Assembly (NCBI GenBank): GCA_038832865.1
Contig: JAWBJE010000003.1
Span: 30,775 to 94,774 of the forward strand
Origin: Sulfolobales archaeon
Lineage (GTDB): Archaea; Thermoproteota; Thermoprotei_A; Sulfolobales; NBVN01
Length of the DNA stretch: 64,000 nucleotides
Direction: 5' to 3'
Shown: in pieces, positions 7,467 through 54,315 of the stretch
Position numbering within the stretch: the first letter of the stretch is position 1
Layout: each line of letters opens with the position of its first letter
Program-made: the position numbers and the translations under genes
The notes under the pieces: model-generated
What the model was told of the DNA's origin: nothing
The model's input: the letters and a program-made list of their open reading frames with translations, nothing else
Database searches by the model: none

Positions 7467-7734
7467 AAACTATCTCCACTAACCTATTATGCTCCCAAAG
7501 GTGGGGCTATCAATCGCGGCTCATGTCGCTAAGCGGTATAAACTGAAGCGATTAACGGGGTCGCGTGAATCGAAGCCCTTCCTGCTTGGCACGCAGTTCG
7601 ATTCGCACTTACTTAAGGCAAGACTGCCGATAGCCGGGAAACAACAGCGTTAAACGACTAGCGCGGTTCAGAGTGAACTAGAGTCTTCACCTCTCTAAGG
7701 CTGCCCACTTCATCATCCATGTTGTAGTTGGTTT

Positions 7735-32907: not shown

Positions 32908-33357
32908 CTACGAAAGAGGTCGTTCAGCGGGACCGGAACTGCTAACTTGAAGGAAGAATAGCCTAAGTTTAGTTGTCGAGGTTAATGAACAGCCATCTAC
33001 CGAAAGACGGTAACTAAGAAGAGGTCTTGGCCTATATCTAACCCGGGGCGCTCTACGCCATGGGCTACCTCTCCAAACCTGAGTCCGGAACTCTTCCTCA
33101 GTATATACTTCCTTTCTAACAATGTTCCTTTCTATGTTTGTTAGAACATTGTGGTGAGCTACTTCGTCTGCATGTATAGCGGACACTATAATCCTTACTC
33201 TAGGGTCTGCCACCTGACCCAGCAGTTTCTTAGTTTCTTCGGCCATCATGGCTTCAGCACGTATGTGGTCTGAGATCCTATTAGCGATCTCCTTAACGTC
33301 TTCTGCTGTAAGGAGTGGCTGTATTTCAGTTAGTAATTCCACTACGGCTTTGTACAT
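32908..33357 (-). CDS. hypothetical helical protein with a ferritin-like ADEVAHH segment; the C-terminal third looks non-native
   Basis: The first ~95 codons look like a helical bundle. The remaining ~55 codons are Arg/Pro/Ser-rich (WRRAPRVRYRPRPLLSYRL...), suggesting a lost stop codon or a frameshift. Confidence 0.4.
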   Translation of the reverse strand: MYKAVVELLTEIQPLLTAEDVKEIANRISDHIRAEAMMAEETKKLLGQVADPRVRIIVSAIHADEVAHHNVLTNIERNIVRKEVYTEEEFRTQVWRGSPWRRAPRVRYRPRPLLSYRLSVDGCSLTSTTKLRLFFLQVSSSGPAERPLS

Positions 33358-50350: not shown

Positions 50351-51490
50351 ATGGTGCTTGGAGAGCTAGCTCTAATATTACTCTGTGTCGCACTATCTCA
50401 CGTAGCTTCTCTACCTCTCCTACTGCTTAAGCTACCTCCGATACCAGCCTATATAGCTGTTGGCATTTTGTTGCGGTCTACTCTTTCCGACACCCCCGGA
50501 ATAGTCTGGGAGAACTTAGTCAGCTTTTCACTAGTTTTCGTAGGTCTCCACGCTGGACTCTCATCTAAGATCAGGCGGGACAACATAAAGAGAATTGCGC
50601 TAGCATCTTTAGTCAACGTCGGTGTCTCTGCGGCAACTGTTTACATGCTCTTAGTTCTCCTAACAGGCGACTTCATTAAGAGCTTTTTAATGAGTATACT
50701 GCTAGCTAATACCGCTACCGAGGGGGTATTAAGCTTGTCTAGGTACACTAAGCATAAGAGCGACACAGAGGTCGCTTTAGAGATATCGATCGGAGACGAT
50801 ATCGCAGTACTCTTGCTATCCACTGCAGTTCTAGCGCTCATGGGTACCCAGCAGACTTACGGGATACTAGTCTCTGCCGCAGTTATAGCAGGTGTCATAA
50901 CGTTCCTCAGCGTGTTTTTAAGGAAGAATGTTGATCGTGCTATACTTAACACTGTATCCATAGCAATCCTCTTCATTCTTGTCGCTTTAACAGCAGATAA
51001 TATCGGACCGCTAGTGGGGGGATACATAGTTGGCATATCACTAAGCTCAGCAGCATCTTCAGGTGACCCGCTTTTAAAAGTAGCTAGAAACGTTGAAGCC
51101 TTAGTTGATGGACTGGAACACGTCAACAGCTTAGTGTTTCTACCCTTAGTGTTTACGTACATAGGGCTAGGAGTTAGCATATCTGGGGCTAGCACACAGC
51201 TAGTTTGGTTAGGCTTACTCGGGGCTGTAATAGGGAAACACGCAGCTACATTATTATTAAAGAAAATGAATCTCGTGACCCCTCTTAGCGTTCGTGAAGT
51301 AGCAGCACTAATTACGGTCAGGGGCTCTCTAGAGTCAGCAATAGCTTTAACAGCACTAAAATCTAACTTATTTACAGCTGAAGAATTTACGGCATTAATC
51401 ATAATATCTTTCTCAACCTACCCTATTTCAACGGCACTAATAGCACTTAGCAGAAGGTCTGTTTCTAAAGCGTTTCAAGTGCTTACCTAG
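50351..51490 (+). CDS. cation:proton antiporter (Na+/H+ exchanger family) membrane protein
   Basis: About 380 aa, with 10-12 hydrophobic helices and a CPA-like N-terminal helix pattern. Confidence 0.65.
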   Translation: MVLGELALILLCVALSHVASLPLLLLKLPPIPAYIAVGILLRSTLSDTPGIVWENLVSFSLVFVGLHAGLSSKIRRDNIKRIALASLVNVGVSAATVYMLLVLLTGDFIKSFLMSILLANTATEGVLSLSRYTKHKSDTEVALEISIGDDIAVLLLSTAVLALMGTQQTYGILVSAAVIAGVITFLSVFLRKNVDRAILNTVSIAILFILVALTADNIGPLVGGYIVGISLSSAASSGDPLLKVARNVEALVDGLEHVNSLVFLPLVFTYIGLGVSISGASTQLVWLGLLGAVIGKHAATLLLKKMNLVTPLSVREVAALITVRGSLESAIALTALKSNLFTAEEFTALIIISFSTYPISTALIALSRRSVSKAFQVLT

Positions 51491-51597
51491 CCTCTCAAAT
51501 AGAATTTGCGCACATACAGTAAAAGCGGGTCAGCTCCCTCACTCAACCACTCGGTTATTGTGATATAACGTTCTGAAGACTTGGAGAGGGTTCGAGG

Positions 51598-51850
51598 GCT
51601 GTTTCTTTTATTTAGTTTTTTGTAGGTTTCTCTAGGGTGCTTAGAGCTCTTGGTGTGATCAAGTCAAGCAGGGTTTGTAAATCAGCGAGTACGCATAGAT
51701 GCTTTGGTGACTTCGGGCTTCTGAGACCCACGGCAGAACGTGGAGGGGGAGTTCGGGGAAACCGTGATAATCCACCCTAGGAAAAACTAAAAGAAAACTA
51801 GGGCGGGAAACAATTGGATCTCTCTTAGCAACTAGTTGTGCGAGCGAAAC
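51598..51850 (-). mobile_element. ORF-less insertion-like block I3, 17 nt downstream of the subtilase stop
   Basis: The minus strand starts (A)GTTTCGCTCGCACAACTAGTTGC and ends AAATAAAAGAAACAGCC, a degenerate copy of the I1/I2 end motif. CCCTAG...CTAGGG hairpin with an A/T-rich loop at 51775-51803. Boundaries are approximate. Confidence 0.35.
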
Positions 51851-52170
51851 TGGTTTGAGGTTTCCGCCTAGAGGTTTAACGACCTTAGTACTAGGCTGTG
51901 TGCGTCTACTAGTCCGTAGCCGGTCTCCTGGTCGTAGCCTGGGAGACCTAGGTCTGCAGCTGTAGACCTGACTAAGTCTATTATCTGTGCTGGTGCGAGC
52001 TTCTGCCTACCTGAAGCAAGCCTTACCGCTTGAGCTAGTGCGACGGCGGCTGATGCGTGTGGGCAAGCCATGCTGGTACCGCTCGCTACGACGTGCTCGT
52101 TTCCTATCCACGTCGAAAGCACCCCGGACCCCGGTGCCACTACGTCCGGGTTCCTATTGCTCCAGCTGGG

Positions 52171-52419
52171 CTGTTTTCTTCTTGATGTTTTTAGGAAATG
52201 CTTATAAGCATTGTTTTTGCTCTATGTTTATTGGAAGCCCCGGTGGTGATGGGAGCATTGCTCCAAGCCACCCGGGCTTGAGCTAGATGGGAGCCCCGTG
52301 CCGTTGGGCTCGACAGCCACCCATGAACCCATACAGATACCGATATCTGTATGGGCGAGGTGGAAGTCCCTGGATACGAAAGAACATAAACAAACAAAAA
52401 TAAATATCCAGGGACAAAC
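52171..52419 (-). mobile_element. interrupting block I2 (249 nt, possibly two modules flanking a short exon remnant)
   Basis: The minus strand starts GTTTGTCCCTGGATA. Perfect 11-bp stem at 52366-52376/52405-52415. Perfect 12-bp hairpin at 52328-52355. 16-nt palindrome at 52197-52212. Ends AAACATCAAGAAGAAAACAG(CC). In-frame stops at 52228-52230 and 52222-52224. Confidence 0.45.
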
Positions 52420-52668
52420 GGTTGAGCCACCGGAGTTACCGGATGCCGCAACCAGGACTGCTCCAGCAGTATAGGCGTACCTAATAGCGTCGTAGACTAC
52501 AGAGCTAGAAGGTCCACCAAAGGACATCGAGATGACGTCGGCGTCGTCCTCCGTACCGACAACTCCATCGGGTCCCCTCACCGCCTCGATTATGCCTCGA
52601 GCTATGTCGCTCGCGTATCCCTTCCCAGAGGAGTCGAAGACTCTAACAGCGTACAGAACTACCTTAGG

Positions 52669-53039
52669 GCTGTTTTCTTTTTGATGTTTACTTGTGTTGT
52701 TCGTGTGCTTTGCGACTGTTCATGATCTTTTCGTCTCGGAGGTGTTTGAGTGCTATTAGGTATGCTGATGCTGTGTGCCTGTCCAAGCCGTGCTTCTCCA
52801 TTACGAATCTGTGCTCTTGCGAGCTGGAGGTCCCCCTGAGCTCATAAAGTTTTTAAACCTAAAAACTTATGTAGTTAGCGTGCCCTCGGGGGTTCCAAGA
52901 CCCGTGGAGCGGTGAACCGTAGGTGACTACGGGGAGCCTCCGCGGTGAGGGGCTCCGAGGAGACCGTTGAGAGGTAGATGGCTGGGAGGTTGGATATAAA
53001 AGAGCATGAAAGCCTATGAACAGCCATCTACTGAGAAAC
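52669..53039 (-). mobile_element. interrupting block I1 (371 nt), a cleanly delimited insertion in the subtilase gene
   Basis: The minus strand starts GTTTCTCAGTAGATGGCTG. Perfect 11-bp stem at 52974-52984/53021-53031. Ends AAACATCAAAAAGAAAACAGC. Deleting it joins ...GIAGVA to PKVVLYAVRV... in frame. No ORF, TIR or TSD. Confidence 0.55.
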
Positions 53040-54216
53040 GGCTACACCGGCGATACCCCAGTTGTTTAACCTAGCGGCGGCTATCCCGGCTACGTGTGTT
53101 CCATGTCCGTTCGGGTCAGCACACTGAGATAGGTCGCTACCTCTGTAGAGAGTGCCGTTTAACGAAGAAACACACCACACTACAGCACCGGCGAGGTCTT
53201 GGTGCGTGTAGTCTACACCTGTGTCCACTATGGCTAGCTGAACTACTACGCTGTACCCGTATGCTGAGTCACCGTACTGGACACTCGTCGCCCAGACCTT
53301 AGTAGCGTTGATCATCTGGACGTTCCACCCGATCGTGTCGCTGTACGCTGTAGATGGAGGTGGACTCGGGGTCTCCGAAGTGGGTACCACAACTCTTACG
53401 GTTACAGTAGCTGATGCGTAAACAGTACCCTGACTACTGGAGTCTACTACTGCTAGTGTCCAGCTGTAGGTGCCCGCCGCACTCGGTGCTGTGAACTCTA
53501 GCCTTCCTGAGTAGCTTGAGCTCGGTGGTAAAGCTACGGTGTCCGTTCTCGCGACAGCTATACCTCTCTCGTTCCGTAGCTCTACGATAACCGAGACGTC
53601 CACTTTACCTACGTTCTTGATAGTGAAGGATACCTCGCCGTTTGCACCTACAGCTACCGTGACATCCCTCGTGTAGTCAGTTATACTTACTCTAGGTCTA
53701 CTAGCTCCCGAAGGTTTACTGCTTATCTCTAGTGTTACGTCTTCCTCAACGTACCTAGCGAAAGCGAGTCCCCGCAGGCGCTCGACAGCGTTCTTCGGTA
53801 TTGACAGAACTACGACCCCTATCTCAGGTATCTCCTTCTCTACCGACCCAAACTGCCCTAAGACAGCTTTGACCTTTCTTAGGTTAAACCCTTGACGCAC
53901 GGCCACTACCGCCCTGACCTTGGTAACAGAAATAGCTTCCACGACAGTCGATAGTGTGGATACGACCACTAAGGTTACTAAAACTAGCACAACGATTCTC
54001 TCCATCGTTTCCACCAATTAATGAAGAGCTATCGTTCTATCACCACACCATTACAGTCTTCAAGCTCGCTACTATGGCTTCGCAGATCAGGACCTAATCA
54101 CTTTTACTGGAGGAAACATCTTAAACGATGAAATCTCCTACGACAGGTCCTCAGGAATTCGAGCAAACCTGTGTGGTGTTTAAGTGTACTAGAGCTACTA
54201 GCCTAGACCCTAGTAG

Positions 54217-54315
54217 TGCGGGGGGTGGGATTTGAACCCACGCAGGCCTACGCCATCGGGGCTCTCACTTTAGGTCCTGAGCCCGACCCCTTCGACCTGG
54301 CTCGGGCACCCCCGC
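54217..54315 (-). tRNA. tRNA-Leu (anticodon CAG) with a 14-nt intron at the canonical 37/38 position
   Basis: Reverse complement reads GCGGGGGTGCCCGAGCCAGGTCGAAGGGGTCGGGCTCAGG[ACCTAAAGTGAGAG]CCCCGATGGCGTAGGCCTGCGTGGGTTCAAATCCCACCCCCCGCA. CUCA pairs with the intron UGAG to form the central helix of a BHB. CCA is not encoded. Confidence 0.88.

Follow-up and report, generated by a model that had tools for sequence, protein, structure and literature searches.

An S8 protease pseudogene of a Sulfolobales archaeon is interrupted by DNA insertions that are very probably gene-less IS607/TnpB derivatives

The window analysed here is a stretch of 64,000 nucleotides (nt) from a Sulfolobales archaeon (assembly GCA_038832865.1, contig JAWBJE010000003.1, positions 30,775 to 94,774 of the forward strand). 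On its minus strand, an S8 protease gene is found in three pieces that are split by two non-coding blocks, while a third block lies downstream of the last piece. This arrangement had been described in an earlier interpretation made without database searches (hereafter the sequence-only reading), and it is confirmed by the open reading frames (ORFs) and their translations. The blocks are DNA insertions and not intervening sequences. They are very probably internally deleted, non-autonomous derivatives of IS607/TnpB insertion sequences (IS), resembling miniature inverted-repeat transposable elements (MITEs) or palindrome-associated transposable elements (PATEs), and belong to one superfamily sharing its termini; they are new members of a known element type and not a new kind of intron. 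The features of the locus, in window coordinates, are as follows.

53040..54017, minus strand: S8 protease pseudogene fragment 1 (ORF and translation), with the signal peptide, the N-terminal domain and the Asp and His regions, ending in ..NNWGIAGVA
52669..53039, plus strand: block 1, probable b1-type non-autonomous element of 371 nt, left end GCTGTTTTCTTTTTGATG.., right end ..CAGCCATCTACTGAGAAAC
52847..53039, plus strand: right-end RNA module of block 1, with a TATA-like box at 52847-52859, structure from ~52882, a terminal hairpin at 52973-52984/53021-53031 and the end GAGAAAC, then GG
52691..52849, minus strand: remnant of an SSO2105-type (PF27229) TnpB-like gene in block 1, the last ~40-53 codons (..MEKHGLDRHTASAYLIALKHLRDE..), reading towards the left-end motif
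52420..52668, minus strand: S8 pseudogene fragment 2, PKVVLYAV .. AASGNSGGST, Asn region
52171..52419, plus strand: block 2, probable b2-type non-autonomous element of 249 nt, made up of a 65-nt left end and the last 185 nt of an IS607-type element
52171..52235, plus strand: left end of block 2, with the shared terminal motif CTGTTTTCTTCTTGATG.. and the putative former tnpA promoter region (TATA-like CTTATAAG at 52201-52208)
52231..52419, plus strand: right-end RNA module of block 2 (putatively omega-RNA-like), with four helices, the last hairpin at 52366-52376/52405-52415 followed by AAAC, then GG and the flank; it overlaps the last ~70 tnpB codons
51868..52170, minus strand: S8 pseudogene fragment 3, PSWSNRNPDVVAPG .. 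GTSMACPH .. stop, Ser region
51597..51811, plus strand: block 3, probable b3-type element of ~215 nt in the 3' intergenic region, older and partly degenerate, left end GGCTGTTTCTTTTATTTAG.., right end ..CTAGGGCGGGAAAC

Both stretches between the protease fragments, of 371 nt (53039-52669) and 249 nt (52419-52171), contain stops in all frames. An intact orthologue of 531 residues (P0001), from a related species, shares 87-92% identity with the joined S8 protein, and an Ignisphaera-labelled orthologue (P0007) shares ~60% amino acid identity with the window protease. The three pieces had been taken for the parts of a single protease, but the Asn and Ser parts do not adjoin in the protein: between them, where block 2 is inserted, 22 codons (PLCPACYPEVIAVGAVDRYYTV) are missing that the orthologues possess and that belong to a conserved core segment. 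At loci L006, L007 and L008 of a related species (91-94% identical), the DNA contains 66 extra nt, encoding PLCPACYPEVIAVGAVDRYYTV, exactly at the window's block 2 position. As the window copy is devoid of these 22 core codons, it is a pseudogene.

Comparison with close relatives reveals the sites without the insertions. The sister strain at locus L009, 98.9% identical to the window, is devoid of block 1 and reads GGTGTCGCT directly joined to CCTAAGG. The loci L006/7/8 carry neither block 1 nor block 2 and encode the intact 531-residue protease. In L009, the 66 nt are present and are followed by block 2 at the same junctions as in the window, and the corresponding empty site is present in L006. 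Four DNA metagenomes report the same picture, with contigs of a related strain, at flank depth, that skip 52668-53044 and contain the 66 nt in place of block 2. The blocks are covered at 10-100 times the flank depth, and metagenome contigs of several studies connect the blocks to the window flanks. Block 3 is located at the same place in L006/7/8 (89-90% identical), where its right-end flank is still GG; since it lies there downstream of an intact gene, it is the older insertion. The sequence-only reading had offered a previously undescribed intervening sequence as an alternative, which is not sustained: the blocks are absent as DNA in close relatives, the gene is dead, a match to an intron model is lacking, and no bulge-helix-bulge (BHB) motif stands out from chance.

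The resemblance between the block ends, which had been noticed from the sequence, holds: the motif copies at 52667-52689 and 52168-52190 differ at only one of 23 positions, the one at 51596-51618 is a 70% copy, and the 12-mer AAGAAAACAGCC occurs exactly in the 64-kb window only at the first two of these sites. The GTTTC/G followed by a stem at each block start (in the protease sense), the common orientation, the lack of an intact ORF and interiors that cannot be aligned with each other all hold as well. The motif is shared far beyond chance. A scan with the 19-mer CATCAARAAGAAAACAGCC, searched in one genome per species, returns 70 loci, ~34 of them in hot-spring Thermoproteota (Sulfolobales/Desulfurococcaceae, Ignisphaera, Zestosphaera, Infirmifilum and Bathyarchaeia). 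In the latter, the upstream context is constant, the next base is always C, and three metagenome-assembled genomes (MAGs) contain 6-7 copies per genome; the remaining loci are scattered bacterial matches, as chance predicts for a 19-mer. All-against-all comparison separates a b2-like group (253-259 nt), a b1-like group (373-390 nt) and long members that carry these ends too. At least 10 further copies of the b2 type, 253-259 nt in length, are found in other genomes, and a metagenome scan with the block 1 right-end motif returns at least 120 loci, mostly short elements among the matches listed. The best-conserved parts of the family copies are the terminal transposase-end sequences. The b2 copies L033, L055 and L061 of an Ignisphaera sp. 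MAG are 94% identical to window 52171-52419; because the protease orthologue P0007 is only ~60% identical at the amino acid level, this suggests a recent horizontal spread of the b2 element across MAGs of different genus label. The blocks' family displays both multiple copies and insertion polymorphism between close relatives, and the further copies and empty sites that had been predicted were both found in relatives.

The long members L060 and L014 (~2005 nt) encode two proteins on the equivalent of the window plus strand, opposite to the strand adopted in the sequence-only reading. The 216-residue protein of L060 is assigned to the IS607 transposases (NF033518 transpos_IS607, 236 bits, cut-off 110), with a PF00239 Resolvase domain and a MerR-type helix-turn-helix (HTH_17/MerR), and has homologues in L014, L018 and L034. 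The 437-residue protein is a TnpB (NF040570 guided_TnpB, 103 bits, cut-off 100; PF07282). Two other members, L026 and L047 (1495 nt), encode TnpB alone. The order from tnpA to tnpB in L060 and L014 establishes the window plus strand as the elements' own orientation. The supposed 24-nt end motif is hence the left end, which starts (G)GG followed by CTGTTT(T)C, the reverse complement of that motif, and the GTTT plus hairpin is the right end in reverse complement. The right end consists of a ~185-235-nt module, which overlaps the 3' end of tnpB in the full-length elements and closes with a hairpin-(G)AAAC, then GG and host DNA. The hairpins, formerly interpreted as transposon ends, belong to this conserved RNA module at the tnpB 3' end.

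Block 2 consists of the two ends of such an element. Its nt 1-65 share 86-91% identity with the L060/L014 left end. Its nt 65-249 correspond, at 94% identity, to the final 187 nt of L060 and include the last ~70 codons of tnpB on the plus strand (94% to L060 TnpB residues 367-436 by tblastn). In the left-end alignment with L060/L014, the tnpA ATG is located at nt 72, and the region preceding it in block 2 may have a promoter role. A distance of ~25 nt separates the former tnpA TATA box from the deletion junction downstream, at which the module begins, so that block 2 may be a promoter-RNA cassette. Block 3 has paralogues in L041 and L022 (79-80% identical), and only such short paralogues are known: no long gene-bearing parent was found. 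The block limits proposed from the sequence corresponded to existing blocks, but the start of block 3 is at 51811 (GTTTCCCGCCCTAG..) and not at 51851: the L041 and L022 copies end at the equivalent of window 51811 (..GCGGGAAAC, then GG), and the raised metagenome depth reaches only ~51819. Likewise, the blocks are gene-free in that no intact ORF is present, but block 2 holds a coding remnant of tnpB and block 1 one of a TnpB-like gene.

Block 1 shares with the L060-type element the first ~22 nt and the GAAAC end followed by GG, and exhibits 93% full-length identity to L067. Its parents are 1.3-1.5-kb elements (L108, L145, L180 and L189), which match it at both ends and in the gene remnant and whose termini are those of the blocks. 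These elements contain full-length TnpB-like genes of 370-420 residues in inverted orientation, reading towards the left-end motif, while the RNA module is located at the far end and is divergent from the gene. Block 1 has kept the last 40 codons (80% identity to L189 residues 320-359 by tblastn), which accounts for the small ORF 52688-52801. In Pfam, the protein falls into PF27229 (SSO2105_N), a family often found in Thermoproteota, the cultured Vulcanisaeta souniana among them. Its scores with the TnpB models stay under the threshold, and it is devoid of the zinc-ribbon part of the TNB domain. However, fold searches with its AlphaFold model (pLDDT 86) report matches with Cas12k, Cas12f and ISDra2 TnpB, and the RuvC-like triad of D, E and D does not vary in the family. 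A sequence search of the PDB with the b1-type protein did not return any match, and a protein search with the 53-residue remnant returned other MITE-borne fragments only.

Two observations concern relatives of the b1 type. The annotated "hypothetical proteins" P0121-P0139, of 40-86 residues, are C-terminal TnpB-like remnants of b1-type short elements. In V. souniana (L200, AP026830.1), an inverted PF27229 gene is present, and the one terminus that was read has a similar ending (..GGATTCAGCCC). For the inverted TnpB-like gene, a guide-RNA scaffold at its own 3' end, which is the motif end, was considered and rejected, as this end has no conserved structure (alifold -0.5 kcal/mol).

At the junctions, all 69 distinct flanks of the left end have GG directly before the element, and 53 of the 55 distinct flanks of the right end have GG directly after it. 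A G is present at position -3 in 64% of the flanks and at position +3 in none. The two ends share only GTTTC/GAAAC, and there are no terminal inverted repeats. Filled and empty pairs were sought among ~200 loci, and only the two in the protease gene were found (block 1, window versus L009/L006; block 2, L009 versus L006); neither exhibits a target duplication. The AGCC and AACC left flanks had been put forward as the target. Only their CC is meaningful, being GG on the element strand, and it is present at both junctions. The junctions resemble the published signature of IS607 elements, which consists of GG in the target and at the termini, without inverted repeats or duplication, and one studied IS607 system has a TGGG transposon-associated motif (TAM) (PMC6188088, PMC4058570, bioRxiv 10.1101/2023.11.20.567912).

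Conserved structure is evident in the b1 and b2 right-end modules. For the b2 type, 13 distinct right ends share four conserved helices, and RNAalifold reports 46 pairs, 13 of them with compensatory changes; the clearest covariation is seen in the CCATACAGAT/ATCTGTATGG helix. The covariance model R1, built for this type, scores 220 bits at the block 2 module. In the b1 type, the structure common to 58 non-redundant right ends comprises an outer stem, an inner hairpin with four pair types and a long terminal hairpin. Compensatory changes occur in it, and in many copies a TATA box precedes the first stem by ~25-30 nt. Folding z-scores are -7.0 for the plus strand of block 2, and -2.4 and -2.7 for blocks 1 and 3. 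Runs of U.G pairs in the b1 and b2 modules indicate that the structure is that of the plus strand. By their position, their overlap with tnpB and their structure, the b2-type right-end modules appear to be omega-RNA-like. Regarding expression, contig depth from one metatranscriptome, which is directionless, peaks at 52908-53041 (the highest) and at 52238-52371. The few module reads of a stranded metatranscriptome run point opposite to the protease exon reads, favouring a plus-strand RNA.

Several results weigh against the assignment of the three blocks to one IS607/TnpB superfamily with guide-like RNAs. The search for a partner covered the 64-kb window, which contains no tnpA and no intact tnpB, so that a partner in the same cell is putative. 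The b2-type covariance model does not detect the block 1 and block 3 modules, and the equivalence of the modules therefore rests on their position, end sequence and gene remnants. A search of the whole window with Rfam at the gathering threshold returns tRNAs and one chance match but nothing at the RNA modules, and no Rfam family matches them in 51400-53200 at E<=5, although a curated family need not exist for this Thermoproteota lineage. Three raw-read metatranscriptomes yield 0-12 reads, and looking for more RNA runs brought no new data, so that the RNA evidence is thin. Both empty sites read GGGG on the element strand and, once filled, have GGG before the element and GG after it, which means a gain of the body plus one G, against the body plus two G predicted by a conservative 2-bp GG exchange (one-G deficit at window 52667-52670 and 53039-53041, L009:7280-7285 and 7528-7533, and L006:7290-7297). 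Lastly, the b1-type gene and the RNA module are in opposite orientations, which is the case at no studied TnpB locus; a guide located upstream of its nuclease gene and divergent from it is an arrangement not described for TnpB. A tentative and rather doubtful proposal covers the last two points: the putative SSO2105-type nuclease of the b1 type may be guided by the RNA from the other element end, which would have a promoter of its own, block 1 would then be a "guide-RNA-only" selfish element, and the one-G deficit would reflect a variant of IS607 strand exchange.

Other explanations of the locus have been weighed against the IS607/TnpB derivation. In the sequence-only reading, the closest logic was that of the IS200/IS605 elements, inserted here 3' of an AGCC/AACC-like target; such palindrome-associated elements are moved as single-stranded DNA by a Y1/HUH transposase. 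Part of this logic stands, as the blocks are non-autonomous relatives of TnpB-bearing IS without terminal inverted repeats (TIR) or target-site duplications (TSD). Strand-specific insertion, a hairpin near one end, TnpB in relatives and the existence of IS605-type PATEs with omega RNAs (PMC10055086) also speak for a Y1/HUH transposase. However, the transposase encoded by full-length relatives with both ends is a serine recombinase scored in the IS607 family, and no Y1 transposase is seen in any full-length copy. Moreover, the flanks conserve only the GG dinucleotide, at both junctions, and the hairpin is found at one end only, as part of a covarying RNA module, which makes Y1/HUH mobility very improbable. 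Descent from transposon ends that no longer move, the blocks being structured small-RNA genes domesticated by the host, would agree with the conserved RNA modules, their promoter-like boxes and the retention of block 3 in two species. Such a role is just as improbable, since presence and absence differ between strains that are 98.9% identical, the Ignisphaera b2 copies are far closer to the window (94%) than the protease P0007 is (~60% of amino acids), a conserved gene was destroyed by the insertions, and it is the transposase-end sequences that are best conserved.

Intervening sequences acting at the RNA level, whether of the BHB, group I/II or IStron-like type or of a new class, would be spliced so that the protease is made. 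The removal of block 1 (371 nt) does restore the ..GVA to PKVV.. frame, the blocks are structured, and fusions of IS607 with group I introns (IStrons) exist. Nevertheless, the 22 conserved core codons are still missing after removal of block 2, and splicing could therefore not rescue the protease. Block 3 and most copies of the family are intergenic or lie in varied contexts, no intron family matches 51400-53200 at E<=5, and the best BHB score at either block is 8 of 12 pairs, a value reached by 54% of random position pairs. The conserved structure is antisense to the protease, and the empty sites exist as DNA, so that splicing appears very improbable here. An assembly artefact, in which repeats were misjoined into the protease gene of a MAG, would fit with the contigs of three sister MAGs that end inside the blocks, as is typical of repeats. 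The same arrangement is nonetheless found, in full or in part, in five sister MAGs that are ~99.9% identical to the window; the entire region is present in two independent MAGs (99.8-99.9% identical) and parts of it in three more, L009 has block 2 at the same junctions, and metagenome contigs from multiple studies join the blocks to the flanks. The chance of such an artefact is negligible.

If we assume that the blocks are IS607/TnpB derivatives, each would retain only the parts needed for transposition and for guide-RNA production. By homology with IS607 elements that have been studied, we infer that an IS607-type serine recombinase, TnpA, acting in trans from a full-length element located elsewhere, would excise the block as a double-stranded circle and insert it at a GG, leaving the target unduplicated. 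Transcription would run through the right-end module on the plus strand, from the former tnpA TATA box in block 2 and from its own TATA-like box in block 1. The resulting RNA may serve as a guide (omega RNA), with its 3' part provided by the adjoining host sequence, and a TnpB made elsewhere would associate with this guide and cut the emptied sites, leading to the element being copied back. The order of events, as deduced from the sharing of insertions between strains, is likely block 3, then block 2, then block 1 together with the 66-nt loss. Block 3 would have inserted downstream of the protease gene, and block 2 would have entered a GGGG run of the coding sequence and inactivated it. In the window lineage, block 1 would then have entered another GGGG run and the 66 nt beside the block 2 right end would have been lost, while the sister strain would have followed an alternative path, gaining a separate TnpB-bearing IS in fragment 3. 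Once block 2 had inactivated the protease, later insertions and deletions would have been neutral and piled up.

The loss beside block 2 can be located precisely. Compared with L009:7216-7281, 66 nt of the host gene are missing at window 52419/52420, directly at the block 2 right end. The resulting junction, AAAC-GG-TTGAGCC, comprises the 3'-most GG of a GGGG run followed by T, which is the preferred target context of the family. A transposase-mediated event would account for the loss, and so would recombination with another copy close by.

The additional insertion of the sister strain is ~1495 nt long (L009:7655-9149) and interrupts protease fragment 3 at the position equivalent to window 52048/52049. 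It encodes, in the direction of the protease, a 396-residue TnpB (PF07282) that is 29% identical to the L060 TnpB. Its ends (..CAGCC followed by TCACGCAACTGTTTCGG, and GAGCTGAACCCC followed by GCTG) are unlike those of the blocks. This IS was considered as the source of the blocks and rejected on account of these ends and of the low TnpB identity.

Apart from a 25-nt right-end remnant at 32985-33009, neither blastn nor a covariance model of 190 positions (filters off) returned another copy in the window. This plus-strand stretch (AATGAACAGCCATCTACCGAAAGAC, then GG) matches the terminus of the block 1 right end at 88%, lacks both a partner stem and a left end, and is an apparent solo remnant; it is located at the 3' end of the minus-strand ORF 32908-33357, whose C-terminus passes through the match. 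In the related species, L006:5605-5683 is a reversed b2-like fragment, 75% identical. Synteny with L006 ends at 54209, adjoining a 99-nt minus-strand tRNA at 54217-54315. This tRNA is detected by Rfam with 46 bits but is not called by ARAGORN, and it therefore probably contains an intron.

Compared with known systems, the elements resemble the IS607-family IS, such as Helicobacter pylori IS607, IS1535, Sulfolobus ISC1904 and the CboTnpA/CboTnpB elements. Shared features are a tnpA for a serine recombinase with an N-terminal MerR-like HTH, located before tnpB, the lack of TIR and TSD, GG at the termini and in the target, a preference for G-rich sequence 5' of the left end, and a putative guide-RNA region that overlaps the right end. 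They differ in that the window blocks are gene-less derivatives only, that the termini are Thermoproteota-specific (GG before CTGTTTTCTTYTTGATG at the left, hairpin-AAAC before GG at the right), that two sites have one G less than a 2-bp exchange predicts, and that one sub-family carries an inverted TnpB-like gene. In Sulfolobus islandicus, SMN1 is a 320-bp non-autonomous element without an ORF, mobilised in trans by the transposase of ISC1733 (PMC3718332). By description, it is like the blocks an ORF-less crenarchaeal element of a few hundred bp, whereas the present elements fall into three or more sub-families whose RNA modules differ. ISC1733 belongs to the IS607 family, and SMN1 is not known to have inverted repeats or duplications.

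The minimal PATE-like IS605 elements of Geobacillus stearothermophilus, described by Meers et al., are protein-less, consist of the ends and a guide-RNA gene, and would need TnpB in trans (PMC10055086). They depend on a Y1 transposase, single-stranded DNA, hairpin ends and a 5-nt TAM, in contrast to the serine-recombinase type and GG core seen here. IStrons, in which IS605/IS607 elements are joined to a group I intron, are likewise IS607/TnpB elements in protein-coding genes whose precise removal regenerates the frame, but the blocks have no group I intron match, are 215-371 nt in length and interrupt a gene that is not rescuable. Regarding the SSO2105-type proteins (PF27229), which some annotations name "IS605 OrfB family transposase", the block 1 remnant belongs to the same family, with its TnpB/Cas12f-like fold and D-E-D residues; these proteins differ from TnpB in scoring below the model threshold and in lacking the TNB zinc ribbon.

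A candidate for a new type of intervening sequence is thereby removed, and the fragmented gene is a decaying pseudogene containing transposon relics. For annotators, such elements break MAG assemblies and yield spurious small "hypothetical proteins". For research on RNA-guided nucleases, they are a source of candidate thermophilic TnpB/guide pairs and of a divergent TnpB-like family. For the uncultured hot-spring Thermoproteota, these data record widespread IS607/TnpB elements together with gene-less derivatives that consist of a putative promoter, a guide-RNA-like module and two ends.

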